NCBI GenBank assembly: GCA_963799845.1
Contig: CAWCYI010000004.1
Coordinates: 2,048,001 to 2,112,000 of the forward strand
Origin: an uncultured Nitrososphaerota archaeon
GTDB taxonomy: Archaea > Thermoproteota > Nitrososphaeria > Nitrososphaerales > CADDZS01
Direction of reading: 5' to 3'
Length of the DNA stretch: 64,000 nt
A program made the translations under genes and the position numbers. The first letter of the stretch is position 1, and every line of letters begins with the position of its first letter. The notes under the pieces were generated by a model. That model saw nothing but the letters and a program-made list of their open reading frames with translations, was not told the DNA's origin and did not search any database. Positions 349 through 63,828 of this stretch are shown here, piece after piece.

Positions 349-597
349 TTGCCACCACATCATTATCCCAAAAAACGAGGCGGCCAGATCCCGAGACGGA
401 ATGGATTCCCACGGAAGGAGAACGACGGGGAGGGAATGGCTGGTTTTGCTGCACAAAGAATGATCAAAGGGTACATGGAAAGACGGGACTATTCGGTACT
501 ATCCGACAGTCCACTTTTGGTCCGCAGGCAATTCCACGATATTGACGTGGAAGCTTCATTCGATCCAATAAAGAACGAATTGGTAGTAACAGCCTAG
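349..597 (+). CDS. Hypothetical protein with HY tag (MPPHHYPKKR)
   Basis: TTG start directly after the upstream stop; tag present. Confidence 0.7.
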   Translation: MPPHHYPKKRGGQIPRRNGFPRKENDGEGMAGFAAQRMIKGYMERRDYSVLSDSPLLVRRQFHDIDVEASFDPIKNELVVTA

Positions 598-713
598 AAA
601 GGCGCAGATGATCAAAAGCCATTCCTAAACGTGCGCGTGGGAAAATTACATTCAATCGATAGCGTTTCAAAAGCCGTGGAATTTGTCGAGACGATTAAGG
701 CGGACTAAAGTAA

Positions 714-1106
714 ATGTCTCACCAGTACACTAACCGCCGCAGCACTCGGTATCGTCCTGGAGTACGGAAGATTCTCAAAGAGATCGAGGCTCGCGCGGCT
801 CGCGAGGCTATCTCGCGCCACAAAGCTGAGAAAGCCAAACTAGCTGAAAAACTATCTGAGACGGCCTTTAGGCAAAAAGTAGCTGCGCTGAAAACGCTCA
901 TCGCGAAAGATGCGAAGTTCCGAGAACCACTAACGAATACTGCGGGATTCGAGACTCCTGAATTTTTCGCTGCTTTAAACACGCGAGCTATCGTCAGAAA
1001 GCGGGTCTACACATTGATCCACGAGCTGCAAGAGTCCGCGCCAGAATTTGACTGGACCGCCATTCAGCGGGCTTTTCTGATCATAGATCGCGAACAAAGA
1101 AAGTAG
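714..1106 (+). CDS. Basic helical protein with tag variant (MSHQYTNRR)
   Basis: 130-aa ORF with tag variant. Confidence 0.7.
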   Translation: MSHQYTNRRSTRYRPGVRKILKEIEARAAREAISRHKAEKAKLAEKLSETAFRQKVAALKTLIAKDAKFREPLTNTAGFETPEFFAALNTRAIVRKRVYTLIHELQESAPEFDWTAIQRAFLIIDREQRK

Positions 1107-1126
1107 CTCGGGTAGTGCTTCTGCAT
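1064..1126 (-). pseudogene. Tag-only minigene or remnant MQKHYPSYFLCSRSMIRKAR
   Basis: ATG at 1126 preceded by AATTTCCTTTTTCTCTTA; 20 codons overlapping the end of the convergent 714-1106 gene. Confidence 0.45.
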
Positions 1127-1144
1127 TAAGAGAAAAAGGAAATT

Positions 1145-1657
1145 CTACATCGTCGGGCTAGTGTTCACGGGTTTGGGCGGGAAAATAGTGGCAGAGAGAC
1201 GCGGCCAAAATTTCTCGTGATCTTCATATTTTGCATCATTCCAGCCTGGGTACTCTTTCTTGAGCGCGTCGAGGACGCTGTTCCAAGCCTCGGGTGTAAA
1301 GTGATGAGATCCGTGGACATACCGCCAGTTATCTCGCTTGTATTTTGGTAGCAGAGCTTCTACTGATTCCGAGGAAGGTCCATCGACCCATCTCACGTCG
1401 ATACTCTCGCCGCCAGAGTATTGATCAATGCGTACTGAGGACGACGCATCGGGAAACATTTCTTTCAACTCTACTCTCAGGACTTTTGCAGCATCCTGGA
1501 CAGGCATCTCTTTGAGATCCTTTTCGGAGTACCTAGAGGGAATTATTTTTGGTACTTTCTTCCGTTCATTCCTCTCGATACGGGGCGCACCGCCAGTCGA
1601 TCTTCTGTAATTTAGTACCCGATCATGGGGCTGCCGTCTCGGATAATGCTGCGCCAT
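1145..1657 (-). CDS. LPD29-like (polyvalent-protein-associated) domain protein with HY tag
   Basis: Starts MAQHYPRRQP. 'AAKVLRVELKEMFP...SVRIDQYSGGESIDVRWVDGPS' resembles the LPD29 signature. Confidence 0.65.
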   Translation of the reverse strand: MAQHYPRRQPHDRVLNYRRSTGGAPRIERNERKKVPKIIPSRYSEKDLKEMPVQDAAKVLRVELKEMFPDASSSVRIDQYSGGESIDVRWVDGPSSESVEALLPKYKRDNWRYVHGSHHFTPEAWNSVLDALKKEYPGWNDAKYEDHEKFWPRLSATIFPPKPVNTSPTM

Positions 1658-1836
1658 TATTGGAAAAAGGAGATTTTCTGGATCGATTGCTACGTGATGA
1701 GAAATTCATCCGTGATGACGACCAGCCTAACAATGGTTAATCTGATCGAGAGATGCGAGATTCTTTTCGGTCTGCCTCGGCCCTTAGCGCGAGCAACAGG
1801 TTATCCGTCAGCTGTACGGTCTTATTCTGTGCCAAC

Positions 1837-1992
1837 TCAAGACCTGATATGTTTCAGGATTTTCTCGCAGCTCTCAAGCATCGATCGTACATCCTCTTTG
1901 CTGAGAGTCCTTTCCGTGAACACTGCGGTGCTACCGAGTCGCCTCTTGATATTGCTGACCTCGCTCTCGACGAGAACAGGCTGCATCGTCAT
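1837..1992 (-). CDS. Small hypothetical protein (51 aa, MTMQPVLVESEV...)
   Basis: Below the ORF-track cutoff; ATG preceded by the AATCTTCCTTTTT element. Confidence 0.45.
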   Translation of the reverse strand: MTMQPVLVESEVSNIKRRLGSTAVFTERTLSKEDVRSMLESCEKILKHIRS

Positions 1993-2012
1993 TACAGGTA
2001 AAAAGGAAGATT

Positions 2013-2387: not shown

Positions 2388-2412
2388 AGACGAAAAAGCG
2401 TAATTCCGAAAG

Positions 2413-3138
2413 TTAGGCTCTTTCTTCTTCGCCGCGTGTTTCTGTCTCAGCTAATTCCTCGGTGGACCGCTGTTGAGAAAGGTGTGGCTGCGCGGGCGGT
2501 CTTGCTACGAAGGCATTGGACGAGAGACGTTGCGCCCAATTCTGCCAGCTTGCGGGATCCACGTCCTTCGGGTTGATCCTAGCATTGACGTACACGATTT
2601 TATTGCCCTGTTCATCCTCGGAAGCTAAAGGCAACGAATCGCCGCCAGGAACAGAGGCTGCTGGAAACATGGCTCTAAAGTAGACCATTCCATCGTCGCT
2701 GCCGATTCTCATCTGATCGGTGTACTGGTATCCGACAGTGATCCCACTCGATTCAGGAAAAAACCATTGGCCATCAGGAGCTTGGATCGCGTACAGGAAT
2801 CGCTTGTCGTTTGGCGAGCCATCCTCGTTGGTAACTTTTGGACTCAAAAGAAACGAAGATCTGAGATCGCCTAACGACTCAAACATGCTTTCGAGAACCA
2901 CGGCGGCCCTAACCTTTTCCACGTCCATCTCGGGATTCTTTTGCAGCTCTTCGTCAAGATGCCCCATATTCGACTCCATCTTTTGCTGAAACACTCCGAG
3001 AGTAGAATTTGAGTTAGAAGCTGGCGGCAACGGTCTTTCGTTATCCGCAAAGTCTTGGGGTGGCAGCAGAGGCATACGGGGCCCTGGTGCGGTCTTTGGT
3101 TTCTTCTGGGAATAGTGGTGGGTGGGCGTTTCGCTCAT
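2413..3138 (-). CDS. Hypothetical protein with HY tag (MSETPTHHYSQKKPK)
   Basis: About 241-aa ORF coupled to the upstream gene; tag present. Confidence 0.75.
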   Translation of the reverse strand: MSETPTHHYSQKKPKTAPGPRMPLLPPQDFADNERPLPPASNSNSTLGVFQQKMESNMGHLDEELQKNPEMDVEKVRAAVVLESMFESLGDLRSSFLLSPKVTNEDGSPNDKRFLYAIQAPDGQWFFPESSGITVGYQYTDQMRIGSDDGMVYFRAMFPAASVPGGDSLPLASEDEQGNKIVYVNARINPKDVDPASWQNWAQRLSSNAFVARPPAQPHLSQQRSTEELAETETRGEEERA

Positions 3139-3359
3139 CAACGTCGCCGATCTGGTGGACTCTTGGCTATGTGTTCCATTGCCTCGGCTTTATCTTTCAG
3201 CGTTCCGCCGTTCCTGATAATATCTCGCTCGGTTCCGAACACGTAAGCTCCCGCCCTTTTCTTTCCAATCGTTTTTGTGGCACTCGCGAGAGCTCTATTT
3301 CGGATCTGGCGATACTTCGTCATATTCAATCGCCCGCCGTAGTGGTGGCCACTTGGCAT
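3138..3359 (-). CDS. Small basic protein with HY tag (MPSGHHYGGR)
   Basis: Start re-assigned to ATG 3359, which follows TTTTCCTTTTTCCTCT. Confidence 0.65.
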   Translation of the reverse strand: MPSGHHYGGRLNMTKYRQIRNRALASATKTIGKKRAGAYVFGTERDIIRNGGTLKDKAEAMEHIAKSPPDRRR

Positions 3360-3475
3360 AGAGGAAAAAGGAAAATACATGCTTTTTCTTATGTTTAGGA
3401 TGCCGGTGCGCTACAAATTTCTCGCTGTCTCACTGTCGCTAATAATTCTGATTAGTCTGGCGGGCCTCGGCGGTT

Positions 3476-6495: not shown

Positions 6496-7077
6496 TTAAA
6501 TCCGTTTACATTCTTTTAGTGCTTTGCATAATAATCGGCGACTGCCCTGAATGACTCCTTCGGTTCCCAAGGCATGTCGGGGTAAGTCTGTGATGATGTA
6601 GTATCCGTGATCCTCAAGCCCAGGGATCTTGAAGGGTTGAGAGTAGATCGCTTTCCCCTCGGGTATGAGCGCCTCTTGTTTCAGCTGATCGAAGGATTTC
6701 GATTTCTTCTCTTGAAGTGGCGGCGTGGGGATAATTGGTGGGATCTGTTTCGTTGTCTCGGGATTGAGACTGTTGATCCGATTATAGAAGGCTAGGGCCG
6801 CTGCATCTTCGTTGGGCTGCGATGGTTCCGCCTTTAGGACAGTCCTTTTCTGATCTGCTTTGAGGCCATAGACAAAATCAGTCTGCCCGTTTCGCAGATT
6901 GTCTGGATATTTCTCTACGTTCTCGGCGTAGATTTCCTTCGCGAGTTTGATCAATCTGTCCAGCGGAGTGCTTCGAGAAACTTTCTTCGGTCGTTTCGGT
7001 CGTTGCGAGTTTTTCTGCCGATGTTTATTCGGGACTAGAAAGAAGCGAGGCTTTCGATTCGGATAGTGCTTATTCAT
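6496..7077 (-). CDS. Hypothetical protein with HY and FFL tag (MNKHYPNRKPRFFLVP)
   Basis: Tag; basic N-terminus. Confidence 0.75.
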   Translation of the reverse strand: MNKHYPNRKPRFFLVPNKHRQKNSQRPKRPKKVSRSTPLDRLIKLAKEIYAENVEKYPDNLRNGQTDFVYGLKADQKRTVLKAEPSQPNEDAAALAFYNRINSLNPETTKQIPPIIPTPPLQEKKSKSFDQLKQEALIPEGKAIYSQPFKIPGLEDHGYYIITDLPRHALGTEGVIQGSRRLLCKALKECKRI

Positions 7078-7309
7078 CGGGCAGTATCACGCCTTCCCAA
7101 TATTCGCCGTTCTTCGTCAGGGTAACGTGGTATCCTTTCAGATGATCGATCGCACCACTTGGGCGTTCTTTGATCTTGTCGAGGCAGAGCATCACTTTGT
7201 CTGGACCGCCAACGTTGTAACCCGTATTATTCCAGAGGCCGCCGATGTAGCGTTCAGCAAAAGGATCCGCCTGTCTTGATCCGAATCTTCTTTCCTTTTC
7301 TTGGGCCAT
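7070..7309 (-). CDS. Small hypothetical protein
   Basis: Overlaps the downstream gene start; operon-like arrangement. Confidence 0.5.
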   Translation of the reverse strand: MAQEKERRFGSRQADPFAERYIGGLWNNTGYNVGGPDKVMLCLDKIKERPSGAIDHLKGYHVTLTKNGEYWEGVILPDE

Positions 7310-7393
7310 TCGATCTGAGCTCTTCCCTCGTATATCCTAAGAACTGGCTCGACCGAATTGTGCGAGTGCGATGCTTGCGCCGTGGATAGTGCT

Positions 7394-8110
7394 TCAATCA
7401 TCCTCAGCGTAGACGAGTTTTCCGAGTTTGCGATCTAGGACATAATACGTTCCGTTGCCAGTAAGGTGATACTCGCGATTGAAGTTCACGAAACGATCTT
7501 GCAGCTTGTCGGTCCTCAGCTCAAGCTCAATATCTTTGTGCCGTCCGCCGCCGCTGAATGGTTTAGTTTCTTCCTGCACCGATAAGTAAAATCGGTCTGG
7601 CGGATCCGCATCCCAGTGTACTGCACCATACTCGATTTGTAGAGCGTTGGGTGGGCTGCCGATCATCTTCGTTCCCAATCTGTAATATTCATTGTTGCCC
7701 TTTGGATCATCTCCGCGTACGACGTGGCGCAAATCAGTGTGAATGTTGTGCGGCTCGAATCCAGCTTCCAGCAAGACGTGTGGTTTGATGCTGTTCTCAA
7801 TGAATTCTTTGAAGGTCCTGCCGCGAGAAATGTGATAGAGCATTACCAGGCTCTCGAATTCTTTCCATGCTGGTAATTCTAGTGATGTTAGCTTTCTATT
7901 GATGTTAGGCTTCGCACCAAAATCGTTGTCGATAAGATCTTGGAAAGCAACCTCGTTAATGTCTAGGCCCTGTTTTTCGAGATAACCCTGATTTGCTTCG
8001 GCATATTCCCTTTTCGGTTCCTTCTTGGGTCTAACGCCGAGAAAGAAATTATTCGTGGCTTTTCGCGGTGAAGCTTTCGCAGGATAGTGCTTGCGGCCTT
8101 TCGATGCCAA
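7394..8110 (-). CDS. Hypothetical protein with HY and FFL tag (MASKGRKHYPAK...NNFFLGV)
   Basis: Start re-assigned to TTG 8110, downstream of the shared A/T element at 8130-8142. Confidence 0.7.
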   Translation of the reverse strand: MASKGRKHYPAKASPRKATNNFFLGVRPKKEPKREYAEANQGYLEKQGLDINEVAFQDLIDNDFGAKPNINRKLTSLELPAWKEFESLVMLYHISRGRTFKEFIENSIKPHVLLEAGFEPHNIHTDLRHVVRGDDPKGNNEYYRLGTKMIGSPPNALQIEYGAVHWDADPPDRFYLSVQEETKPFSGGGRHKDIELELRTDKLQDRFVNFNREYHLTGNGTYYVLDRKLGKLVYAEDD

Positions 8111-8148: not shown

Positions 8149-8475
8149 ATGGCTCGAAAGAAATCCTCTCACCACTACGGCAGCCGTCCACCGCGAGCGA
8201 GGAAGGGCGACCTATCGAGCTTCGTTCCGAAGGATAGAACGCCGCCAGCGGGTCTGCGGGCTTTCGATGCTGAACCACGGAGATTGAAGCGGGAAGGCGC
8301 AGAAGATCACCGTCTCGATTCGACACTTGGGATTTACCTGGACAATCAGGGAAGGGTCGATGATCCCGTGCTAACTCTGGACTTCGAGGAAGATGCCCAG
8401 AAGCTCAGCGATTTCCTTAGGGTTTGTCTCGGTGCTTTCTTCCGTAGTAGTGGTGAGCCATCTACGAGAGCCTAG
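8149..8475 (+). CDS. Hypothetical protein with HY tag (MARKKSSHHYGSRPP)
   Basis: Tag and upstream element. Confidence 0.6.
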   Translation: MARKKSSHHYGSRPPRARKGDLSSFVPKDRTPPAGLRAFDAEPRRLKREGAEDHRLDSTLGIYLDNQGRVDDPVLTLDFEEDAQKLSDFLRVCLGAFFRSSGEPSTRA

Positions 8476-8996
8476 CGATAATTGTAACTTCTCAAACGCT
8501 TCGCGTCCTCGACGCTGCCAGCTCGCTGCAACGCCATATCGTATTCGGTGTCCTCGCTTACTAGGCCCGATTTCTTGGCTGCCTTCACCAATTCCATTAG
8601 GGCTGCAAGACCATTTTCAGCTGCCTCGCTGTTTGATTGCATACCGCCAGAGTGCATTTCGCCTTCCAAATTTTCCAGATACTCTTTCGCTGCCGAATAT
8701 TTGTCGTAAGAAATCGCTGGACGCGAAACAGAAGAAACGCCCATCTCTACGATCCGGTAGTGCAGATTTTCTTTCGCCCATTTCTGCTCTGCTTTATTCA
8801 GACCTGAATCCCTCAGCATATCTTCCCAGCTGTACATGCCGCTAAACTGAGAATCCATTGCATCATTGACCTTTCCAATCACATACTCTTTGTTAATCGG
8901 CTCGGGAGATCGTCTATCGGAACCTCTGCTCTTTCTCATTCTGTCCCGTCCGTGATGGGAATTCGATTTGCGGTTAGGGTACTGATGGCTCGGCAT
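8472..8996 (-). CDS. Hypothetical protein with tag variant (MPSHQYPNRK)
   Basis: Tag; GAAAACGTGTTTTTAGATC-ATG upstream. Confidence 0.75.
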   Translation of the reverse strand: MPSHQYPNRKSNSHHGRDRMRKSRGSDRRSPEPINKEYVIGKVNDAMDSQFSGMYSWEDMLRDSGLNKAEQKWAKENLHYRIVEMGVSSVSRPAISYDKYSAAKEYLENLEGEMHSGGMQSNSEAAENGLAALMELVKAAKKSGLVSEDTEYDMALQRAGSVEDAKRLRSYNYR

Positions 8997-9014: not shown

Positions 9015-9376
9015 CTAATCCGTTTCTTCTCTGTGCCGCATCATCTCGGCTTTCTCAAGCATCGCCACTCGCCTCTGGCCCTTTGTACTTGCAAAGTACT
9101 CTATCCTCGTGGGCTTTTCCTGTCCAAACTCCCAAGTCATGTTTGATTGCAGCAAATTCAAGTCCGACAAGTGATGTACCAGCTCTCTATCTTCCTCGGT
9201 CCTCGGAATGAAGGTCTTATTCTTCACAATGTACGCCAGCATTGCATCTTCTCTCTCTGTCGGCCCAGGTTCATCCACAAATCGCACCACTGGCGAAGAG
9301 CTCAGATTCGTAATCCTAGTGGCGCGCGCGCGCGGTTCACCGCTTTGCGATTAGGATAGTGCTGGCGGTTTCCCAC
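9015..9376 (-). CDS. Hypothetical protein with HY tag (MGNRQHYPNRK), frameshifted in a (CG)n tract
   Basis: GTG at 9376. Adding one CG unit at 9322-9334 joins it to ORF 9015-9290. Confidence 0.6.
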
Positions 9377-9401: not shown

Positions 9402-10544
9402 GTGCCTCGCGGGAAATCTTCACGCCATCACTACGGAAAGCGGAGAAGATCCACGCCCGAATACACAGGGCCGTATATTCGCAGAGAACCACAGGGCGAT
9501 TATGGCAGGTATCTGGGTCGCTCGACTTCCTCACGCCGATTGAATCAGCTCCAATGGATGCGCCGAAACAAAGAAACGCTTTCCAAAATTGATGAAGAAC
9601 AGCTTGAGTATGGAGAGAAGCATATCCTAAACGATGAGGTAGAGTACGCAGTAGCGAAATTTCTCACGAGTCCACCAGGATTTGTCGCCGCTTTGAAAGC
9701 AGCAAAGGCAGAGGGGAACATGGACGAGTACTGGCGAAAACTACGGAACCAAAATTACAATTCTCGCTGGTACGATCAGGATCCCTTCAACTACACTAAC
9801 CGCAAATTACAGATTGAGGCCGATGGAAAGGGTCTGCACGTCTTTGTGAAGGGCGGTCCGAAACGGTTCATCAGCTACGAGGATATTTCCTGGAATTACG
9901 TCGATGTGGTATTTCCAGCGGACTATTACAGGAACATCTCCCAGAACATCGCGACAGGTCTGGGAGAGGCGCGGGTCAAGATTCTGGACGACCGTACAGC
10001 TGCCATCATCTCTGACGCAGAAGAATTAGACAGGATTGCGGGCGGCTATGATCAGGCTACCAAGCTGCGCCTAACTCCGAAGGGACAGCCGACCGTCGCC
10101 GACATTCTCCAACCTGGCGATACCATCGAGAGTATATTTGGAGATACCAAAACGGATCGGAAAGCCAACAGATCCGTGTACAAAGTCGTTCAGGTCAATC
10201 AGTTCAATGAATACGGTGGAATCCCAACTTGGAGTCTCGTCCTCGTGGATCCGAAACTCCCCCCGTTGAAAAACGGCGGTTACAGAGAGAACAATTACAG
10301 TGACATCAACGATCTTGTCGCTCAGGACGGAAAGATCCGCGCTCTATTCTACGCCAACGATGAGACACTGAACGTACTTAAGAAAGGGAAGCCAGCACCC
10401 GTGAAAAAATCCGAAGAACCTGCCATGTTCGCAAAGACGGTTCCAGCTCGACCGCCAAAGAAGGTCGACAAAGACCTAGAAGAGATCAAAGAATTCAACG
10501 AGTCCCATCAGGAATCCCTAGATCACTATTTCGATAGAAAGTGA
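9402..10544 (+). CDS. Hypothetical protein with HY tag (MPRGKSSRHHYGKRR)
   Basis: 380-aa ORF; tag present. Confidence 0.8.
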   Translation: MPRGKSSRHHYGKRRRSTPEYTGPYIRREPQGDYGRYLGRSTSSRRLNQLQWMRRNKETLSKIDEEQLEYGEKHILNDEVEYAVAKFLTSPPGFVAALKAAKAEGNMDEYWRKLRNQNYNSRWYDQDPFNYTNRKLQIEADGKGLHVFVKGGPKRFISYEDISWNYVDVVFPADYYRNISQNIATGLGEARVKILDDRTAAIISDAEELDRIAGGYDQATKLRLTPKGQPTVADILQPGDTIESIFGDTKTDRKANRSVYKVVQVNQFNEYGGIPTWSLVLVDPKLPPLKNGGYRENNYSDINDLVAQDGKIRALFYANDETLNVLKKGKPAPVKKSEEPAMFAKTVPARPPKKVDKDLEEIKEFNESHQESLDHYFDRK

Positions 10545-10603: not shown

Positions 10604-10834
10604 ATGCGATCATTGGAAGTTGCGAAGCTGGTCGTTAAGCTCCGCGACAGAGAGCGAATATTCGGACAGCCCCTTATCGCTGACACTATCGCTTATCAGC
10701 CGTGTACTACTTGTGAGCGACACTCAAATTATCCAAACGTTCTTCCAGTTACAGAACATCGGAACGGGATATGCGTCATCTGTCAAGCTTCGCTAGAATT
10801 TTTCGCGCAGTATCAATTCGGCGGGCCGAGCTAG
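10604..10834 (+). CDS. Small CxxC...CxxC zinc-binding protein
   Basis: 'CTTC' and 'CVIC' pairs. Confidence 0.45.
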   Translation: MRSLEVAKLVVKLRDRERIFGQPLIADTIAYQPCTTCERHSNYPNVLPVTEHRNGICVICQASLEFFAQYQFGGPS

Positions 10835-11793
10835 CCCGTGAACAGGGATAGATCGACGTTGGGGTGTTCGTCGGTGTAGCGTTTCATATCTTGAGCTCGG
10901 TAGAACCTGACTTTCTGAGCAGCAGCAGGATTTCGCCTGTTTTCGAGGCCGATCTTCGCAGCTTCTTCTTTCATGTACCAATCCGCCTGTCGCGGTCCGT
11001 CCTCTGACCACGGGAATTCTGCAATTTTCTCTGGCTTACCGTTCCCGACCTTTCGATAGACTGTGTACGGGATCTTGAAAATGTCCTGTTCGCCAAAGGG
11101 CGCGTGATATGCCCTGAGCTAACATGCGGAATTGTGAGTCGTGCCTAGTAACAAGAAGGTGAATTCCCTCATGGATCAGGACTCCTTTCTGCTGCTCGTC
11201 GGTCAGGGTGAAGAACGAAGGATGGACCTGTAAGATCGTGTACATCGCGCGTTTGCCGTCGACCTCTCTTGAAGTGCGGATTACTCTCGCGATTGCCCGC
11301 TGCTCGGGGATTATCTGGGCCGTAAGATCTCACTGCCAGTCCTCTTGAACAGAATCGCCAGGACAACTTCCCATTTCGCGGAGAGGCCATTGATGAGAGT
11401 GTTTTCGGCATCTGTGTTTGGTTCGTACTTGAAAGCAGTATCGATTTGCTTTTCCAGATCAACAACTTTGTCTCCCAGTTTCTCGCGCTGAATGGCTTTC
11501 TTGGCGATAACTTCCTCGGCAACCTTTTGCGTTCCCTTATCGGAAATGTCTTGTAGCAGCTTGTCGAGTTTCTTCGGATCCTTTAGAGCCTTATGGACGT
11601 ACTCTTGCGCGTCCTTTCCAATTTGTTCACGCTCTTTCTCCAAGTATTGCTTATCCAGAGTCTCTTTGATCTTCGTCCCGTGTTTTTTAGGCGGTTTCCG
11701 AGAGAACGATTCCAGCGGTTTCTCGGAAGCAAGAAAGTATCCGTGTCTGGGCCGTAATTTTCGTCGCTTCACTGGATAGTGCCGCTTGGACAT
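10831..11793 (-). CDS. Tagged zincin (HExxH) metallopeptidase-like protein with several frameshifts
   Basis: Starts MSKRHYPVKR...GYFLAS. Downstream frames carry 'GVLIHEGIHLLVTRHDSQF' and end 'VDLSLFTG*' at 10831. Confidence 0.55.
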
Positions 11794-11797: not shown

Positions 11798-12502
11798 CTA
11801 TGCCTTTAGCGATGAGAGAAACTTTCTGAGAGATTCAGTCGGCAGCTCCTTTTGGCTTACGTATGGGGCAATGGTAACAAAGCCATCTGGGCCCGAGACA
11901 ATCAGTACTTTGTGATCCGCGCCCCAATCCTTCTTACTCAAATATGAAAATGAAATCTGCGTTGGTTTTTCACTCCCTCGGTTAAGAGTTTGAATCGCTC
12001 TCAAGATGTATTCAGCCCTGATGTTAGCCCCATCGATCTCGAAGAAGGAATTCTTTTTCGCTCTCTCCCTTAGATCGCGTTTCAACGTCTCGGTGATGAG
12101 GATATTTTTCGCGACGGGTGTTTGGTCCTTTGTACCTTTGAATTTTGAAATCTCATCGGTGAATCCGATTGTCGCCTCAGTATTCGTGATCAGACCGCCG
12201 CTAAGGTAAGCAGCACCCTTCATTTGCCTTTCCAAAAGTTTCTCCGCAGTGTTGAGCTCCGCAGTGTTGAGCTTCTTGGTAACATCACCATTTGCCGCGT
12301 AGAACCTGGGTACTGCTGAATTATATTCGAGTGGTAGCGGCTTTTCGCGAAAGTGATGTTCTTCCTCTGCAACTTTGGGAACAGGTCTGGGTACTTCTCG
12401 CTTCGTCTTTGCAGCAACAGCAGCTCGGGGAAGCGATCTGTTCTTAGCTGGCTGCCGCTGCGGATAGTGCTTCGGACGAGAGCCAACGAGGAAGTACTTC
12501 AT
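11798..12502 (-). CDS. Hypothetical protein with reversed-order tag (MKYFLVGSRPKHYPQR)
   Basis: Tag; TTTCCTTTTTCTAGC-ATG upstream. Confidence 0.75.
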   Translation of the reverse strand: MKYFLVGSRPKHYPQRQPAKNRSLPRAAVAAKTKREVPRPVPKVAEEEHHFREKPLPLEYNSAVPRFYAANGDVTKKLNTAELNTAEKLLERQMKGAAYLSGGLITNTEATIGFTDEISKFKGTKDQTPVAKNILITETLKRDLRERAKKNSFFEIDGANIRAEYILRAIQTLNRGSEKPTQISFSYLSKKDWGADHKVLIVSGPDGFVTIAPYVSQKELPTESLRKFLSSLKA

Positions 12503-12517: not shown

Positions 12518-13662
12518 CTAGAGTAGTCCAGCACGGTGAACTGTGTCGAAGATTTCGAGATCCGTTGCGGTTCTCCCTCGGTCATGCCGCTGGATGGCCT
12601 CAATGTAAATCCGCCGTTGCTGCTCTTTTGTCAGGGGTTTGCCCTTCCGTTTCACCAGCGCGGTACCAGCTTTATTCCAGTGATAGATCCCGCCAGAAAG
12701 ATCGGTTTCCGCTTTCAGCATCGCGACCTGTTTCAAATCCTCAAAATTCAGCACGTTCAATTCCTCGCGAGTGTACTTCTTGAAATACATCTTGAGATCC
12801 TGCTGGACCTCTGGGAGAAAGGCTTTCGCGATTTCCCTCTTACCCCAACGCGCCTTAACATTGTTGTCCGGATCATACAGCGATTTTCTCGGTATCTCGA
12901 TCTCTTCCTCTTGCTTCGAGAGAATTTCGAGGATTCGAGAAAAGGGATAACCCTGATAGGAATAGAGTGGGGTCTGCTCTCCCTCGATCAGTTTGTAAAA
13001 TGCAAAGATGTACTGACCTGGTTTCACTTTGAAAATCGTCGGTTCAATGTGCGAATCGATTCGCAGCACTTGGCTGAGCCACTTTGCATTGACGCCCTCA
13101 TCGGGAATCTTCGGATATTTTCCAATGGAAGCCAGAGCTGCTTTCTTATCTTCCTCGTATTCCGCAGTTTCCCTCTCGACCAACTTTTCTTCCTGCTTTT
13201 CTGCCGCTATCTTTTGCTGGATTTCCCTCGCGGTCATGGCCTCGACGTAGATGTTAGCCCGAGACAGTTCGGAATCGAGATCGTGCCAGGAGTCCGAGGC
13301 AATCGCAAAATCAACCTGATCCAATTTGTCATCGAACACGACTGAATCCCCGCCGTGAGCTTGGAAGGCTGCTTTCCTGAATTCATACCATTTCTGTAAC
13401 GCCCCAATAGGCAGAAGCTTCCTTTTCCTTCCAAATTGGAGATCTGAACGGTACTTGCGGAACCAAACATCATAGAGTCTCTTTACTGTGGGAGATATTC
13501 TGTAATGGTACTTGCGAGATTTTCGCAGTTTGATTTTCTTAGTCTCTTGAGGAACAGGAGCTGGCTTGGGCCGGGGATCGGTCGCTTGATCTTCGGTGCT
13601 AAACGTGGCGAAGGATTCCTGCGATATTCGTTAGGTTTTATGAGAAAATAGTGCTGCGCCAC
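12518..13662 (-). CDS. Hypothetical protein with tag (MAQHYFLIKP), two homopolymer frameshifts
   Basis: GTG at 13662. Single-base fixes near 13575 and 13350 join it to ORF 12518-13339. Confidence 0.65.
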
Positions 13663-13670
13663 CGCGAGAG

Positions 13671-13684
13671 AAAAACTACTTTTT
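13671..13684. promoter_or_regulatory. Bidirectional AAAAA-CTAC-TTTTT element
   Basis: Lies between divergent tagged starts at 13662(-) and 13691(+). Confidence 0.65.
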
Positions 13685-13690
13685 CAACTA

Positions 13691-14515
13691 ATGCCGACTC
13701 GCAAGCATTACCCTGCGAAACCATCTCCAAACACAAATTACCTTGGCACAATGGATGCGTTCCTGGGAACCGCCAGTGGATCGGCAGCCCAAAAAACACC
13801 TGAAAAACGCGAGAGGATCGCGCCTCGAAGTGAAAAAAATGTGGGGCGCGGTTCTGTCTCGCAGAAAGGGAAGAAATCGAAAGCTCCACTCGACGCTGAA
13901 AAGATGACACCGGCGGAAGTGCTTGCGGAGATCCAGAATCTAACGCCTGTGAAGAAAGAGAAGGGTGGACCGCCTAACGTTACCCTGAACCCCGAGAAAC
14001 ACTTTGAGATTTTCACGTTTCATTACGGCGACCTAGTTATCCAGTCGGAGAAACCAATCGTCATTCAGTTCTTGCAGCGAGCTCGCGATCAGCTGGTCGA
14101 GATGGCTGATGACTCTGAAAACCTAGGCCCCACTCTTGCGGATCTGGAAGCCCAAGCCAAGAAGCTGCATAATCAATCACAGTTTTCCAAAGCTGAGGTC
14201 GAGCAAGTCGATAAAGGTCTGGAATATCTCGTGAAAAGACTGAGCGAGATTAGCGGCGTTCCAAGCAAAAGCGAGGAAGTCATGTCATTAGAGCAGCAGA
14301 TCACAACACTGGAAAAACGCGGAGAGGTAGACCCGTACGCTATCAGCGCGGAACGTCTCGCAAAGGATCACCCTTTGACCAAAGCGGCGATTGAAGTGAA
14401 GAAGGTCGAGTTGAAGAATTTGCAGGAAGGATACCGATCCAAGAAAGAGTACGAGGCAGCCCTGGACTCAGCGACGAAGAAATACGCTGAGGAAAGAGCG
14501 AATTTGAGACGCTAA
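13691..14515 (+). CDS. Coiled-coil protein with HY tag (MPTRKHYPAKP)
   Basis: Tag; E/K-rich helical C-terminus. Confidence 0.8.
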   Translation: MPTRKHYPAKPSPNTNYLGTMDAFLGTASGSAAQKTPEKRERIAPRSEKNVGRGSVSQKGKKSKAPLDAEKMTPAEVLAEIQNLTPVKKEKGGPPNVTLNPEKHFEIFTFHYGDLVIQSEKPIVIQFLQRARDQLVEMADDSENLGPTLADLEAQAKKLHNQSQFSKAEVEQVDKGLEYLVKRLSEISGVPSKSEEVMSLEQQITTLEKRGEVDPYAISAERLAKDHPLTKAAIEVKKVELKNLQEGYRSKKEYEAALDSATKKYAEERANLRR

Positions 14516-14535: not shown

Positions 14536-14790
14536 TCAACGCCGTCTTTTATCGTACATGAGTCTGCCCTTTGAGACGTGCGTTCTTCCGCGAACAGGCT
14601 GCACACCACCATCGGATCGTACTCTGATCGCGCCGACTTTACGAGCGTGAGCCACCTCGTAATCTTCCCTCAAGTCGATTGATTTGTTCTCCCCTTTCGA
14701 GTGTCGTATGTGAGGATTATCGCCTGGTCTGCGTCCGCCTCTGCGTGGCTTCTTATTTCCGAAGTGATGGCCGCCTTTCTTCTTAGCCAT
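14536..14790 (-). CDS. Very basic, protamine-like protein with tag (MAKKKGGHHFGNKKPRR)
   Basis: R/K/G/H-rich, 84 aa; start re-assigned to ATG 14790. Confidence 0.65.
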   Translation of the reverse strand: MAKKKGGHHFGNKKPRRGGRRPGDNPHIRHSKGENKSIDLREDYEVAHARKVGAIRVRSDGGVQPVRGRTHVSKGRLMYDKRRR

Positions 14791-15083: not shown

Positions 15084-16213
15084 ATGACCAAGAAGGGTAG
15101 CCACCATTTCTTCCTCGCCAGTCCGAAACCAAAGCGATCCCTTCTGTTCCAGCGAAGAAATCCAAGAGACATGGACGACGATCTTCGGATTACTCGAACT
15201 ATTCTCCCAACAGCAAATCTTCGGGACGGAAGCCACGAGCAGCAACCCCTCAGATCTCAGAGTCGAAACCGACCCCTGCGAAATTGAGTCAGGCTACAAA
15301 GAAACGCGAGGTAACTAATCTCGGGCAACCGATGTTGCTCTATCTGGACAAAGAAACTCCACGGCCGATCCCCACACCAGAGAAGGTGAAGTACCATTAC
15401 ACAGATTATTCAGAACGCGGAAAAATTGTGGAAGGATTCACCGAGGTTCCAGTGGTCTATCAGGCGTTCAATCAGATCGTCGTGCGGGTTCCTGATGATA
15501 TTCTGATGAAGGAAGATTACAAACGTGACGAGCCTTACTCCGTTGGAGATGCAACCGAGGACGCAGGCAAAGTTATCTTCTCTCCGTACATGCCTAAATC
15601 TTTCAAGACGTTAGAGGACGCTGCGCTCTACGCGAATACCGAGGCAAAGAAGGATATTGACCGCTGGACTCGGGATCGCAAGATCGACAACACCAGGTCA
15701 GAATATCTCGGACTAAAGTACGTCGGAAAGAATCGGACCGATGAAATTCCAAAAGACCAGGCGGAGAAATATTTTGGGAAAATCCCGATTGAGATCGCTG
15801 GAAAAGGAACGCGAGCTCAGACCTTCAACGAAGGCTTTCTCGGGCAGGGAACTGTCTACTCAATAACTGATTATGGTGATTACAAGCGGTTCTCAAAGCA
15901 AGACTTGATCGACAAGATGAGGGCGCGGCTGATGCAGAAAGGCGATGATGTTGGCCATGTGCAGTACGTAGATGTTGTCGATTCAAAGACGGGCGATATT
16001 GCAAACAAGCTTCTGATTACCACGTCGCGCAGCGGCTATTCAGTCGTTCCAGTGTTCGGAGAAACGACCGCAAAGAAACCTGACGTGTTCGCGAGCTTTA
16101 TGGAAGAACGTGCAATGAAAGAGGGAGCTGCGGGAACGGGTAGCCAAACTGACATGCGTACTCGGTTCACCGAAGCTAGGCGCAACGGCGGGCATCCTGA
16201 CTGGGCCCAGTAA
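15084..16213 (+). CDS. Hypothetical protein with tag (MTKKGSHHFFLASPKPK), one homopolymer frameshift
   Basis: Adding one C near 15140 joins the 15084 start to the open frame of 15284-16213. Confidence 0.7.
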
Positions 16214-16830
16214 TGCCACACCATTATTTTCTTGCTAAACCGAGCAAGAAAACTCCCAGGAAGCCTCGACCCAAGAAAGTTTCAGCGGAACACTCGAGAA
16301 TCAGCCCGAAAATCACTCGAAGTACCGGAATCCCAATCACTATAGCGGGCACGACCTATGGATATGCAGGCGGCGGTTACAGCGGGGCGACGAAGGAATT
16401 GGACGAGACCGTTGTCCGCGAGTCTGAATTCATGGCGAAGGAATTCAAGAAACCCGTCGAGATCAGGTTCAACAGCGACAAGCAATCTGGCGGTGCATGG
16501 ATCAGAAATCAAAGCGGCAGCTCTCAGGTCGGCCTCTCCGCTGGACTCTATCCCACATTTCCGAAAGGAATGGATTGGGATTCTTACATCACGTCAAAAG
16601 GGCTGCAACAGACTTCTATTCAAAGGCAGATCGATGAGATCGATGAGCTTCCAAAGCATGTCGGTTACAATACGGTGGTCGATAAAGATGCTCTAAAAGC
16701 AGAGGCGTTGAACCGTTTCAACGGCCCCGACAACGAGAGCAGCAAGCACATTTTCCTGAATCACCCTTCCCTCAAAGCCGCAGCGGACTGGATTGCAAAG
16801 TACGTGGACAGATCCAAAATCATATCTTAG
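16213..16830 (+). CDS. Hypothetical protein with tag (MPHHYFLAKPSKK)
   Basis: TAATG coupling to the upstream gene; tag present. Confidence 0.8.
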   Translation: MPHHYFLAKPSKKTPRKPRPKKVSAEHSRISPKITRSTGIPITIAGTTYGYAGGGYSGATKELDETVVRESEFMAKEFKKPVEIRFNSDKQSGGAWIRNQSGSSQVGLSAGLYPTFPKGMDWDSYITSKGLQQTSIQRQIDEIDELPKHVGYNTVVDKDALKAEALNRFNGPDNESSKHIFLNHPSLKAAADWIAKYVDRSKIIS

Positions 16831-16932
16831 ATGCCCCATCACTATTTCGGGGATATAGTCAGGACTCTAGAAATTGCCGCAGGATACTGTAACACAGTTG
16901 GGGGCAAGAGCTCGCGTGCTACTTTCGTGTAA
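16831..16932 (+). pseudogene. Truncated tagged gene MPHHYFGDIV... at the island edge
   Basis: ATG directly after the upstream stop; 33 codons, then island sequence. Confidence 0.55.
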
Positions 16933-48056: not shown

Positions 48057-48239
48057 CCTCACCACTATCCGCATCGTGGTCGCGCGCGCGCTACGTGTGA
48101 TGGCTGCCAAAGCTGCTGGACAGAAAGAGATGTACGCGTGGGTCTTTTACAAGCGCATGCTGACAATTCTTCGATCTTCAACAGCAACAGCGACCACGGG
48201 CATACGTCCGTGTATGAATTGGATTTTTACAATAGATGA
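48057..48239 (+). CDS. Hidden tagged ORF (M)PHHYPHRGRARATCDGCQSC...
   Basis: Start looks like TAATG broken by one extra base (TAATAG); stop overlaps the next start as ATGA. Confidence 0.5.
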   Translation, partial: PHHYPHRGRARATCDGCQSCWTERDVRVGLLQAHADNSSIFNSNSDHGHTSVYELDFYNR

Positions 48240-48685
48240 CGAAGCACTATCCCGAGAGATCGCCACGCAAGAGACTCAAGAAAAATATTCCTCTGAAAGA
48301 GGGTCGAGTGGACCGAGGCACGGATCTGGGAGTTATCAACGCCAGGGATGAACTGTCAGGGGAGAACGTCTCAATTCCGTGGCGCGTTAGAGATGAGCAG
48401 CACATACGACCGCTAGAATCTCTTACACCTCTGGAACAGACACGTTATCTAGCATTGCCGATTGAAAGGTTCTCCGTGGACGCACCGCAGAGAACTCTCT
48501 TTGAATCCGTGCAAAATCCCGAGAACTGGAAATATCCGACGAGGCCCGCGAAGGTCGCGAGCTTGCCCGAGGCTGAGGCCCTTTCGAGAGCCATTTCATA
48601 TTTCGCTGGCGGATCGGAAATAACCGATCTTAGTAGTGGGTACGTCGTGAGCTCGAAGGGATACTATCACTACGTTGGAAGTTAG
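48236..48685 (+). CDS. Hypothetical protein with HY tag (MTKHYPERSPRK)
   Basis: Tag; AATTGGATTTTT upstream. Confidence 0.75.
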   Translation: MTKHYPERSPRKRLKKNIPLKEGRVDRGTDLGVINARDELSGENVSIPWRVRDEQHIRPLESLTPLEQTRYLALPIERFSVDAPQRTLFESVQNPENWKYPTRPAKVASLPEAEALSRAISYFAGGSEITDLSSGYVVSSKGYYHYVGS

Positions 48686-49168: not shown

Positions 49169-49759
49169 ATGACAAACCATTATCCTCGGAGAAAGCCGCG
49201 CAGAAAGAAGGCTGGACTCGGACCGACGCCCGGATCAGATTCTCAGAAAAAAGCTACTGAGGATTTGATCCGAGAATTTTCAAACCTGACCGCAGAACAG
49301 AAAGAACTGATTCGCAAGATGGGATTCACCGCAGCTAATCTCGGTGAGCGAAATGAGGAAATACGTTCAGCAGCCGAGGAAACCATTCTGAAACTGCGTG
49401 AGGAAATGGCAGCCCAGATCACCAGGTCTGATCTTAGTTGGGGCAGTAAATCGAGTGTCTGGGATGCTTTCGACAGCCCAGAAGCTCAGCAGCTCAGGCC
49501 GCAGATCAACAGGATTGTCCTCGACATTTTGGATCGCGCCCTCAACTCGATGGAACTATGGATCGACAACACTGATTGGAACAAGTACGGAATCTCTGAA
49601 TTGCGAAAGGGGATGCAGTTGGAGATCGAGAATAGCGAAGATCTTCTCAAAAGTAATCTGCAACTAGAACCCGTGGTGCAGCAGAAATCGGATATGTCGC
49701 CCAAAGCCCAAGAATTCCTGAATGAGTTTGAAAATACTCGGGTCAATCCAGAGACTTGA
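49169..49759 (+). CDS. Helical protein with HY tag (MTNHYPRRKPRRKK)
   Basis: Tag present. Confidence 0.8.
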   Translation: MTNHYPRRKPRRKKAGLGPTPGSDSQKKATEDLIREFSNLTAEQKELIRKMGFTAANLGERNEEIRSAAEETILKLREEMAAQITRSDLSWGSKSSVWDAFDSPEAQQLRPQINRIVLDILDRALNSMELWIDNTDWNKYGISELRKGMQLEIENSEDLLKSNLQLEPVVQQKSDMSPKAQEFLNEFENTRVNPET

Positions 49760-60897: not shown

Positions 60898-61042
60898 ATT
60901 CAGAGAAATTCGTAGTCTGCACTTTCGACAACTGGCGAAGGATTCCTGAAAGCAGAGCGTATCACTCAAGAGACGGTCCAGTTTGCCGCAGATGTGTGCG
61001 GATGATCAAATCGATGTTTGGTGAAAGGGAGTTGTTTCTGAT

Positions 61043-61354: not shown

Positions 61355-61355
61355 A

Positions 61356-61637: not shown

Positions 61638-61833
61638 ACGACTCGGAATCTCACCTGAACGCCTGTTCTTGCTGAGATACATCGATCCCGAAGCCTATCG
61701 TTGTATGAAGTGCAACTTTGAAACCACTTCCAGTACTTCGCGGTGTCCTAACTGTGGAAAAGAATATAGCTCTACGCCTCTTTGGGGAAAGAAGATTTCC
61801 GAGCTGCGAGCTAAGGTGAAGAAGATTGAGTGA
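61609..61833 (+). CDS. Small zinc-ribbon protein
   Basis: 'CMKC...CPNCG'. Confidence 0.65.
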   Translation: MRETIGSQAKRLGISPERLFLLRYIDPEAYRCMKCNFETTSSTSRCPNCGKEYSSTPLWGKKISELRAKVKKIE

Positions 61834-62158
61834 ACCCGTCTGCCCCGTCCATCCAAAGGTGAAACTCGATCTTCTAATGAAAGGCGAGGGTAGCTGTTTC
61901 AAATGCCATCTCCGGTACGACCTGAAAGAAGCTCGACAAATCCTAGAATTCTGTCAGCGGAACGGATTCAAAGCGAAACAGAAACTCGTCAGAGATACTG
62001 GGCCTCTGAGCTTCATCACTTGGGGATTGCCACCGGGCGGACTCAAGAGAAAGGAGATGGTGATCGTGCATCAGGACGGCAGCGAATTAACAGATAAGGA
62101 AATCCAATTCTTCTCGCGTCCGAAGGCTAGGGCAAATTTCCCGAAGCTTGCACATTGA
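61826..62158 (+). CDS. Hypothetical Zn-binding protein
   Basis: 'CPVH...CFKC'. Confidence 0.6.
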   Translation: MSEPVCPVHPKVKLDLLMKGEGSCFKCHLRYDLKEARQILEFCQRNGFKAKQKLVRDTGPLSFITWGLPPGGLKRKEMVIVHQDGSELTDKEIQFFSRPKARANFPKLAH

Positions 62159-63225
62159 CGGACAGTAGGATCTCACTCTTGTACCCCGAAAGGTTAGGCA
62201 TCAGGACGGCGGACCTCGAAAGATGCCGAGCATTACTAGAATTAATTCTAAAGAAAGCTGAAACAGAAGATCGGACGTGGTCTTACCCCGCTGAACTCGG
62301 GCGCGAGGGTTTGCCACACCTAGAAGATTATAGAACGATTGAAAAATACGCCGAGAAACTTTCACAGTGGTTGCCTGATGGGATCAGCTATGAACCCCAC
62401 AGTCCTGGGGCAGATAACGCGAATCTGATCCGCGTCCTAAACAGGGCAACGTGTCAAACCTGGTTAAAGCAATCCCAGATAAAGACGGCCAAAGAAATCC
62501 TCGAAGTTCAAGCTTATCTGGGACCTGGCTGGTTCTACGAAGATTGCATCAGGAATCAGAAAATAGAAGATTGGATCGCATCCGTGACCGACTTTGGCGG
62601 GAATTTTTCAGCGGGCGGGACTCCCAGGAGAAAGCTCGCCATTGATTGGATCAACAATCGGCTTTTGCATGCTGGATCCACTATTCCGATGAAGCTCCTG
62701 AAAATTGCACAGGCATACGGCCAAACGTTGTGGGCTGTCTCCTCTATGATGCTTCGCGCCAGCGGAACAGACGAGGCCATCTTCATCTACATTCTTTACG
62801 AGTTTCGCGAGGCGGTCTGGATTCGCGTTATAGAATATTTGTCAGAGCAGCGCAGAGAGCTGCCACTTCCGAAGTGGATCAACCTCGCCAACCACTTTCA
62901 AAACCGTCTAGCGAAAATGGAGTCTTACGCAATGAGCTTTGACGACTGGTTAGCGAAGGACGTAGTGGCGGTTTTCCTCTCCCGCCCCGACACGGAAGAG
63001 CTGGCAAAAGAGTACGTTTCGCTGCTCTGTGAGACTGGAAAATGGTTTGCGATCCAGCTCGTCATCGACAGCAAATTCGTGTCAGAAGAGTACCACTCCC
63101 GATACAATGGCTTTCAGGCTAAACGGGAGAGCCTGATACGGGAAGCGAGGAAGAAACCGCGCCTGGATGAGATCCGCGCCAGAGAAAAAGGAAAGAGGAT
63201 CCGTGTACGTTGGAAGAAAAACTGA
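62155..63225 (+). CDS. Hypothetical protein
   Basis: 356-aa ORF overlapping the upstream stop. Confidence 0.75.
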   Translation: MTDSRISLLYPERLGIRTADLERCRALLELILKKAETEDRTWSYPAELGREGLPHLEDYRTIEKYAEKLSQWLPDGISYEPHSPGADNANLIRVLNRATCQTWLKQSQIKTAKEILEVQAYLGPGWFYEDCIRNQKIEDWIASVTDFGGNFSAGGTPRRKLAIDWINNRLLHAGSTIPMKLLKIAQAYGQTLWAVSSMMLRASGTDEAIFIYILYEFREAVWIRVIEYLSEQRRELPLPKWINLANHFQNRLAKMESYAMSFDDWLAKDVVAVFLSRPDTEELAKEYVSLLCETGKWFAIQLVIDSKFVSEEYHSRYNGFQAKRESLIREARKKPRLDEIRAREKGKRIRVRWKKN

Positions 63226-63282
63226 TTCTGCAAGCGGCAAAGGTCGCGAGGAAGATCGCCGACAAAGAGTTACCGAAAGCAG

Positions 63283-63612
63283 TTGAGGACAAGCTCATTG
63301 AAAAACTCGATTAAGCTCGTGATCGTTGCTGCGCTGTTGATCGGTCTAGCATATTTTGGAGTAGAGGCGCAAGAACATCTCAGCATCGGTACCTGCTGCG
63401 ATCAATTTGTTGTTTATTGGATCGATTGTCGTCCGCTACCTAGCGGGGCAGAGTGCATATCTCCATTCTCTTTCTTTTCAGAGTACATGGGAGATTGGAC
63501 CCTCTGCGATAGCGGGAACCTCGGTAACTTCTATGGCTACCAAAACTGTACGGGTCTGAAAGTCGTGGAAGGCTGCTACGATCTATTTCTGACGTGGAAT
63601 TTCTGCTACTAG
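63283..63612 (+). CDS. Membrane-anchored Cys-rich protein
   Basis: TM helix and multiple Cys residues. Confidence 0.6.
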   Translation: MRTSSLKNSIKLVIVAALLIGLAYFGVEAQEHLSIGTCCDQFVVYWIDCRPLPSGAECISPFSFFSEYMGDWTLCDSGNLGNFYGYQNCTGLKVVEGCYDLFLTWNFCY

Positions 63613-63639
63613 CGCGCGCAGGAATTGATTTTTTCCAGT

Positions 63640-63828
63640 ATGTCGCACCACTATCCGAATCGCAAGAACGGCTCTCCGCCCCACTCTGGATCTCCCCACG
63701 GCGGTAGCAACGAGAAGGAACCCGAGCGAGAGAAGCCGGTTGTTTCAGACGTACCAACAGTAGTCAGGATGGGCGACAAGATTTTCAAAATTGGTGAAGG
63801 CGGGTCGCCTCTGGCAATCGAAAGATGA
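63640..63828 (+). CDS. Protein with HY tag (MSHHYPNRK); may continue past the window via a frameshift
   Basis: GGAATTGATTTTTTCCAGT-ATG upstream; tag present. Confidence 0.65.
   Translation: MSHHYPNRKNGSPPHSGSPHGGSNEKEPEREKPVVSDVPTVVRMGDKIFKIGEGGSPLAIER

Follow-up and report, generated by a model that had tools for sequence, protein, structure and literature searches.

The stretch analysed here, called the window, is the 64,000-nucleotide segment G000:C4:2048001-2112000 from the genome of an uncultured Nitrososphaerota archaeon (assembly of 4.6 Mb in 9 contigs, ~47% GC). It lies within a region whose genes encode otherwise unrelated proteins that share a short N-terminal peptide, the HY-box (consensus [KRHQ]-H-[YF]-[P>G,F]-x-[RK]-x-P-[RK]), placed 2 to 15 residues after the start codon. 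When the first-start open reading frames (ORFs) of the whole genome were searched for an N-terminal [KRHQN]-H-[YF] followed by P, G or FL, this tag was found only at ~2,042,000-2,126,000 of contig C4, a region that spans ~85-86 kb, overshoots the window by ~6 kb on the left and ~14 kb on the right, and holds ~40 tag instances with its flanks included. The region is an accessory, mobile-looking part of the genome of a soil or peat archaeon, and the stretch is present in soil, peat and wetland metagenome runs. A 16S fragment on contig C1 gave a better score per matched position as archaeal than as bacterial. Archaeal amoA was found neither in this genome nor in its family (0/12), whereas 8 of 41 genomes in a sample of the order and family possess it; the host can thus be placed only loosely, in a family without amoA within an order that includes ammonia oxidisers. 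All coordinates below are window positions unless a contig or locus is named, with negative numbers and those above 64,000 lying outside the window. The tagged features, together with one spacer between divergent tagged genes, are the following (aa, amino acids; solo tag, a tag without a protein body).

349..597 (+): tagged ORF, 82 aa (LPPHHYPKKR); missing from one metagenome variant, which skips 35-674
714..1106 (+): tagged ORF, 130 aa (MSHQYTNRR, a weak form of the tag); one metagenome variant lacks it, skipping 606-1119
1064..1126 (-): solo tag preceded by a T-tract, 20 codons (MQKHYPSYFL...); remnant
1145..1657 (-): tagged ORF, 170 aa (MAQHYPRR), LPD29 domain at residues 53-111
2413..3138 (-): tagged ORF, 241 aa (THHYSQKKPK), paralogous to the 78001 gene
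3138..3359 (-): tagged small ORF (SGHHYGGR)
6496..7077 (-): tagged ORF, 193 aa (MNKHYPNRKPRFFLVP), HY-box and FL-box (defined below)
7254..7397 (-): tag on a 47-aa ORF (LKHYPRRKHR), new to the list; 7132-7395 absent in one variant
7394..8110 (-): tagged ORF, 238 aa from TTG 8110 (GRKHYPAK)
8149..8475 (+): tagged ORF, 108 aa (SSHHYGSRPPR), divergent from 8110(-)
8417..8461 (-): solo tag, 14 codons (MAHHYYGRKHR), new to the list
8472..8996 (-): tagged ORF, 174 aa (MPSHQYPNRK)
9302..9376 (-): solo tag (NRQHYPNRK) entering a (GC)n tract, then a stop; junction remnant
9402..10544 (+): tagged ORF, 380 aa (SRHHYGKRRR), no family found
10831..11793 (-): tagged gene (MSKRHYPVKRRK...GYFLAS), 160 aa here, ~320 aa after two 1-nt indels and then including an HExxH zincin piece
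11798..12502 (-): tagged ORF, 234 aa (MKYFLVGSRPKHYPQRQP), FL-box then HY-box
12518..13662 (-): tagged gene (VAQHYFLIKP), split into 59 aa + 273 aa; 381 aa with +G after 13572
13663..13690: 28-bp spacer between divergent tagged genes, palindrome GAAAAA-N4-TTTTTC
13691..14515 (+): tagged ORF, 274 aa (TRKHYPAKPSP)
14536..14790 (-): tagged small protein, 84 aa (GGHHFGNKKPRR); intact orthologue P0010
15084..16213 (+): tagged gene (GSHHFFLASPKPK), split into 67 aa + 309 aa; 376 aa with +C after 15138 (4/4 runs)
16213..16830 (+): tagged ORF, 205 aa (MPHHYFLAKPSKK)
16831..16932 (+): solo tag, 33 codons (MPHHYFGD), at the border of a membrane-protein island
39869..40294 (+): tagged ORF, 141 aa (PRHHYTERGP); orthologue P0007 retains the tag
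43381..44421 (-): tagged AAA+ protein like the RFC small subunit (MAHHYFLASGG), RFC homology from residue 107
44458..45810 (+): tagged ATP-dependent DNA ligase (VAHHNPNRQP), catalytic domain from residue 114
45855..46286 (+): tagged ORF, 143 aa (PSHHFPSRHPR)
46322..46840 (+): tagged GNAT acetyltransferase (LSYRHYPNRQPR); orthologue in G002, LSSHHYPNRR
48057..48239 (+): tag without a start codon (TAG-P-HHYPHR), then a (GC)n tract; remnant
48236..48685 (+): tagged ORF, 149 aa (MTKHYPERSPRKR)
49169..49759 (+): tagged ORF, 196 aa (MTNHYPRRKPRR); orthologue in G002, SSHHFPRRSPKKK
63640..63828 (+): tagged small ORF (MSHHYPNRK)

A preliminary description of this DNA had listed 29 such N-termini, and all 29 coordinates yield the quoted peptide on one strand. 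The peptides therefore stand, and several of the entries needed amending as genes: 48057 lacks a start codon and is preceded, two codons upstream, by a TAG; the frames at 1126(-), 9376(-) and 16831(+) stay open for just 20, 24 and 33 codons; the starts at 8110(-) and 44421(-) lie inside longer first-start ORFs; and 44458 reads HHN rather than HHY or HHF. Instances absent from that list were found within the window (7391(-) and 8452(-)) and outside it (-6385, -5612, -1200, -1030, -722, -654, -77, 75629 and 78016). The curated set comprises 40 tag instances, and the pattern tests below were made on 34 tagged proteins.

The specificity of the tag was assessed by a six-frame count of the strict pattern [KRHQN]H[YF][PG].[RK], in which a match was scored as N-terminal when it lay no more than 15 codons from the first start of an ORF open for at least 50 codons. 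The 86-kb region holds 30 matches, 21 of them N-terminal on such an ORF, versus 72 matches and not a single N-terminal one in the other 4.52 Mb. Within the region, nearly all soluble proteins are tagged, and membrane and secreted proteins are not. The stretches 16840-39887 and 49178-63649 are free of tags, as proposed, and the core genes that have no tag are indeed those for membrane or secreted proteins or lie within lower-GC islands and the PolX block.

Selection on the tag peptide

An unbiased scan of every CAYTAY in ~110 kb placed the motif within coding sequence. In strong instances, a start codon in the same frame precedes the motif by 2-11 codons, a distance that reaches 15 in the weaker HHF variant. 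The frame of the motif was the long one, open for 100-370 codons, with the other two frames closing quickly; the earlier statement that the motif is always in frame thus holds. The mean information at codon positions 1, 2 and 3 was 0.94, 0.95 and 0.40 bits, with only 0.02 bits for the third base of Pro and Arg codons, and the Arg of the tag is written CGC, CGT, CGA, CGG, AGA or AGG. Start codons of the tagged genes (n=39) were ATG in 26, TTG in 9 and GTG in 4 cases.

The same pattern recurs between genomes. A 9-kb contig (C144) of the same-genus genome G002 carries four element genes (the ligase, the GNAT acetyltransferase and the homologues of the 49169 and 78001 genes), of which the last three are tagged. 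These three orthologues retain H-[YF]-P-x-R through synonymous codon changes, with flanking residues, linker and upstream DNA diverging. Paralogues at 32% identity likewise retain the His, the Tyr and the Pro at +5 across linker indels of 20-30 residues. Three-periodic conservation, free wobble and these synonymous changes support the proposal that selection acts on the peptide and not on the DNA.

The DNA ahead of the tagged genes has a character of its own, rich in T at -10 to -6 (0.41-0.56) and in A at -20 to -17 (0.41-0.46), compared with a flat profile upstream of 1097 host ORFs. It is this position-specific profile that differs from the host, unlike the simple pattern T5-N3-7-start, which was not enriched (0.47 per kb in the region vs 0.42). 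Besides the palindromic spacer listed above, similar short spacers separate divergent tagged genes at 44422-44457, 9377-9401 and 8111-8148, and as all of them measure just 26-39 bp, they leave no space for two conventional archaeal promoters.

These features raise the question of whether the motif is a DNA- or RNA-level signal alone, such as a promoter, an initiator or a 5' leader, that reads as peptide by accident upstream of the real starts. In keeping with such a signal, the T-tract 10-12 nt ahead of annotated starts is conserved, CACTAT is recurrent, and the gene caller of another data set gave orthologue P0002 a different N-terminus. However, the motif always lies in the long-ORF frame with no intervening stop and its conservation is three-periodic; moreover, the spacing of the T-tract is kept relative to the start codon (10-18 nt, mostly 10-12) and not relative to the motif (20-41 nt), and in the RFC-like gene no in-frame ATG other than that of the tag precedes the conserved EKYRP box. 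Because of the frame, the three-periodicity and the T-tract spacing, we place the motif within coding sequence, selected as peptide; a signal confined to DNA or RNA is already disfavoured and extremely improbable, and it is very likely that the tag is translated, selected and specific to the element. Recent DNA duplication of 5' ends was ruled out, as tag codons differ at most third positions, and an altered genetic code is not needed, the frames being open under table 11.

Carrier proteins and their turnover

Around a third of the tags contain a second motif, [YF]-F-L-[AVG], which we term the FL-box and which stands just before, inside or after the HY-box. It was found in 10 of 450 element ORFs versus 42 of 21843 elsewhere, and its third codon positions also wobble. 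A similar motif occurs at the C-terminus, and not the N-terminus, of a 91-aa ORF at 42553-42828(-), which ends in KFYLATRTRPPVNRKH. Over the 45 residues from the tag onward, K+R make up 0.255, P 0.107 and hydrophobic residues 0.161, compared with 0.146, 0.051 and 0.265 in the remainder of the same proteins and 0.118, 0.041 and 0.343 at host N-termini. A run resembling a transmembrane segment (at least 15 hydrophobic residues within the first 60 aa) was present in none of the 34 tagged proteins.

Behind this common arm, the bodies are unrelated, as had been claimed: when 28 of them were compared (6 of the 34 proteins, of no more than 70 aa, were dropped), a single reciprocal BLASTP pair emerged. 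Tagged proteins measure 46-442 aa and have at most one recognisable domain each. The LPD29 match of the 1145..1657(-) protein is clear (Pfam E 9.5e-13), the HExxH zincin piece of the 10831..11793(-) gene has a sub-threshold WLM/SprT match (E 1e-3), DUF6876 and DUF5771 proteins are also among the carriers, and most of the others had no Pfam or PHROGs match (PHROGs, 0/10). The extension is absent from RFC-like and ligase homologues elsewhere: RFC homology begins at residue 107 and the ligase domain at residue 114. Among the untagged neighbours, one contains a ParB_N domain, and a 153-aa ORF at 48675-49136(+) includes LACAIDSEGLIYF, by eye similar to a LAGLIDADG homing-endonuclease motif, and matched no Pfam family.

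The tag is narrowly distributed. A profile of 33 tags and 42 residues, weak enough that distant variants could escape it, matched only C4:2,041,612-2,126,141 of the own genome and G002:C144 among 13 genomes of the family; it found 2 genomes with matches among 401 of the order, both carrying this element family, and gave 2 matches at E<=0.001 among 1,835,955,588 protein representatives, both of them proteins of this element. A word-indexed search of 5.8 billion proteins returned 7 matches, all orthologues of element proteins. The NCBI record of one orthologue bears the label Candidatus Bathyarchaeia archaeon. No relatives were found of the tagged ligase in a genome-contig collection or of the 78001 protein in a viral-contig collection, and a metagenome scan recovered two short contigs only. 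On G002:C144, an untagged 1123-aa SNF2-helicase/NOV_C protein (L017 2107-5478(-)) adjoins the tagged genes; it has weak tblastx matches on contig C5 of G000 and elsewhere on C4, outside the tagged region.

Contigs of four metagenome runs were compared with window positions 1-17000. They differ consistently from this assembly by 1-nt indels at no fewer than 5 positions (10566, 11116, 11316, 13572 and 15138), which correspond to short homopolymers and were seen in up to four independent runs. Applying these indels fuses at least 3 pairs of a short tagged ORF and an untagged ORF into single tagged genes (~320, 381 and 376 aa), meaning that the tag is even more widespread among the soluble proteins than the uncorrected ORFs would indicate; the indels are probably consensus errors, or else strain-specific frameshifts. 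Larger differences were also found: 35-674, 606-1119, 3229-3900 and 7132-7395 are missing in some metagenome contigs, 4208-6586 is replaced in one, and GC-repeat fillers occupy two variant joints. Solo tags lie at 1126(-), 8461(-), 9376(-), 16831(+) and 48063(+), two of them adjoining long (GC)n tracts. These gene-sized variants and solo tags indicate that tagged genes behave as individually gained and lost cassettes.

Such turnover could also mean that the tag is an evolutionary by-product, a functionless peptide encoded by a cassette of promoter, start and first codons that spread by recombination and captured genes. Solo tags, gene-sized gains and losses, fillers at the joints and the upstream motif that accompanies many tags would all fit. 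A neutral peptide, though, would not keep H-Y-P-x-R with randomised third positions and Arg codon families, and orthologues at ~60% identity have kept the tag even though the DNA motif ahead of it has not been conserved; we regard this explanation as improbable. Long alternating (GC)n tracts were observed at gene or cassette borders (3506, 9322, 48081, 49791 and 63612). Those of at least 10 nt are enriched, numbering 4 in the 86 kb versus 35 in the other 4.5 Mb, and at a threshold of at least 6 nt the region shows no enrichment; the long ones may be recombination scars or target sites.

Possible roles of the HY-box

Cells and viruses sort cargo by short terminal signals common to unrelated proteins, and the HY-box is a narrowly distributed instance of this known theme in an uncultured archaeon. 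Its strict N-terminal position, invariant His-aromatic pair, flexible basic arm, exclusion from membrane proteins and cassette turnover lead us to infer, with modest confidence, a lineage-specific recognition handle for one shared partner. The HY-box would then be a common docking handle read by that partner, the basic arm would be a flexible and probably nucleic-acid-binding linker, and its most likely purpose would be to bring the varied proteins of the element together in a single location. In the version that we prefer, tagged proteins would associate with the DNA of the element or with a transfer particle, and establishment and anti-defence proteins would travel along. A role in co-delivery or co-localisation is thus our leading, if tentative, candidate for the tag. 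In its favour, tagged genes vary between runs by gene-sized presence and absence, as effector arrays do, and the domain repertoire (LPD29, the weak SprT/WLM zincin, ParB_N nearby) appears to overlap that of proteins delivered with invading DNA. A more specific form, in which the HY-box is a dedicated sorting signal on essentially the whole soluble proteome of the element, and a putative receptor loads these proteins into a transfer particle, a vesicle or a replication compartment, is conceivable but on the unlikely side. The preliminary description had proposed an address label, and this idea serves as the best analogy and not as a result.

We consider the capsid-targeting sequence (CTS) of phage T4 the closest analogue. 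According to PMC3012670, the T4 internal proteins are diverse defence proteins, a fast-changing set whose only common feature is the conserved CTS, which brings them to one assembly. A short N-terminal peptide common to otherwise unrelated proteins of one element is likewise what we found here. The HY-box differs from the CTS in motif sequence, in having far more carriers (~40) with replication enzymes among them, and in its archaeal host; in addition, capsid, scaffold and prohead-protease genes were not found among the 72 ORFs searched with Pfam and the 10 searched with PHROGs, nor did PF05065 or PF03237 match anywhere in the genome, a search by which divergent archaeal capsids could be missed. 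Our preferred version resembles a non-covalent form of the polyvalent proteins of phages and conjugative elements (Iyer et al. 2017, PMC5512222), in which an invading element deploys many disparate activities together. Of their characteristic domains (LPD families, zincin peptidases, ParB), the tagged set offers LPD29 and a putative SprT/WLM-like zincin, and ParB_N lies in an untagged neighbour. In polyvalent proteins, 2-15 effector domains are fused in one giant polypeptide, whereas here separate small genes carry the same tag.

A Sec or Tat signal peptide has a hydrophobic h-region behind a charged N-region, which the tags (hydrophobic fraction 0.161, 0/34 with a run of at least 15 in the first 60 aa) have not. 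The PEXEL and RxLR motifs of eukaryotic pathogens are short N-proximal motifs on hundreds of unrelated effectors that are polymorphic for presence and absence; they function in secretion and are preceded by a hydrophobic signal peptide. The HY-box is similarly an N-proximal linear motif on unrelated, presence/absence-polymorphic genes, but a hydrophobic segment occurs in 0/34 of its tags.

Several observations weigh against a shared docking handle that serves co-delivery or co-localisation. Beyond the capsid, scaffold and prohead-protease genes mentioned above, no receptor, portal, terminase or conjugation ATPase gene, nor any other conjugation family, was found in the ~110 kb around the tags (same Pfam and PHROGs searches); DUF87 ATPases occur elsewhere in the genome, one of them on contig C5. 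A hidden clamp or receptor was sought at 47295, where the 252-aa ORF gave an empty PDB sequence search, and in its neighbours at 40296-43247 and 46924-48053, and these candidates were dropped, as they look like membrane or secreted proteins. The tagged ligase and RFC-like protein are replication proteins that need not be packaged. Between orthologues, the 8 residues of the tag do not clearly exceed the body in raw identity, with just H, Y/F, P and R standing out, and the use of a start codon upstream of the tag is predicted from sequence. As for the element itself, neither the window nor its three flanking loci contain tRNA genes, the sole tyrosine recombinase near the tags is located in a secondary island, and the ends of the element are undefined, because the flanking 20 kb on the left (upstream of the window) also has no counterparts in 5 same-genus genomes, except for two short pieces. 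Finally, basic N-terminal arms alone could explain association with DNA, with no receptor needed.

This last point leads to an explanation in which the tag is a nucleic-acid tether: a P-x-[RK]-x-P core and the basic arm would bind DNA, perhaps the A5/T5 tracts beside the genes, and element proteins would coat the DNA or stay on it in the manner of AT-hooks or histone tails. In its favour, 13 of 34 tags contain the core, the tails are rich in proline and strongly basic, DNA is the substrate of many carriers, and tagged genes, unlike host ORFs, are preceded by the A-rich (-20..-17) and T-rich (-10..-6) tracts. An AT-hook, too, has a proline-flanked basic core in basic low-complexity sequence. 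Its R-G-R-P core, however, is found in 0/34 tags (likewise RGR[PK], 0/34, and the GRP tripeptide, 0/34), it offers no counterpart to the invariant His-Tyr, and charge alone fails to explain the His-aromatic pair and its strict N-terminal placement. We regard such a tether as unlikely.

The presence of a ligase, an RFC-like clamp-loader subunit and a SprT/WLM-like zincin among the carriers, together with the enrichment of the FL-box, would suit a hub-binding motif of a replication and repair toolbelt, with the tag, and especially the FL-box, recruiting proteins to a sliding clamp or another DNA-bound platform. Known PCNA clients combine a terminal motif, a basic disordered linker and an enzyme, a layout similar to that of the tagged proteins, and the host has two PCNA paralogues of ~43-46% identity (G000:C6:307124-307912 and G000:C8:24740-25522), both types of which recur in same-genus genomes. 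The known clamp-binding motifs are the PIP-box (Q-x-x-[LIVM]-x-x-[FYW]-[FYW]) and APIM ([KR]-[FYW]-[LIVA]-[LIVA]-[KR]), which resemble the tag as short terminal motifs in basic disordered regions of unrelated DNA-metabolism proteins. Yet each consensus is found in 0/34 tags, APIM is shorter by one residue than the FL-box (K-[YF]-F-L-[AV]-[KG]), H-Y-P would be unlikely to form the short helix of a PIP-box, the GNAT protein and many small ORFans are not obvious clamp clients, and the element encodes no recognisable clamp. We give recruitment to such a hub a low probability.

We accord no higher a rank than improbable to a regulatory N-terminal module, a degron or a processing or modification site that would set when all element proteins accumulate or become active, its reader being a protease or transferase for which the element's own tagged zincin or GNAT protein would be candidates. 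The tag is strictly N-terminal, the element encodes both enzymes, and zincin peptidases were proposed to release delivered domains in polyvalent proteins (PMC5512222). But the distance from the first Met to the tag varies, from 2 to 15 residues, which argues against a processing site read from the N-terminus and also counts against the docking handle, and no conserved cleavage-type residue follows the tag.

The signal is unusually clean: ~40 proteins carry it, the host has no carriers, and it is conserved as a peptide. It therefore defines a testable set of proteins expected to share a partner or a place. Identifying that partner would reveal how the element of an uncultured soil archaeon organises or transfers its proteins. 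A full-text literature search, including the accessible part of PMC6563490 and with supplements outside its scope, found no such signal described for archaeal mobile elements; if the sorting-signal reading were true, the HY-box would represent a protein-targeting system with no described archaeal counterpart. The tag also provides a simple sequence marker by which to trace this element family in metagenomes.

Islands and neighbouring genes

Paralogous arrays of membrane or secreted proteins, untagged and of lower GC (0.41-0.46), occupy 17047-39578 and 50501-57000, and their N-terminal anchors are near-identical (MQTRQ..., MK.STILSLVG...). Two similar small ORFs were found in low-GC inserts at 5453-5746(-) and at L005 3510-3809(-) (window 67510-67809), both containing KSP.FFD.SSKTVER.IQ.WT, and the tyrosine recombinase match lies at 67564-68022; these islands look like secondary insertions into a tagged backbone. 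To the right of the last tag, untagged ORFs with GmrSD_N, HNH, NUDIX and weak DNA-methylase matches were observed (L005 12370-13233 and 14981-15445; L006 659-1926), and these may be a defence or backbone part of the tagged region.

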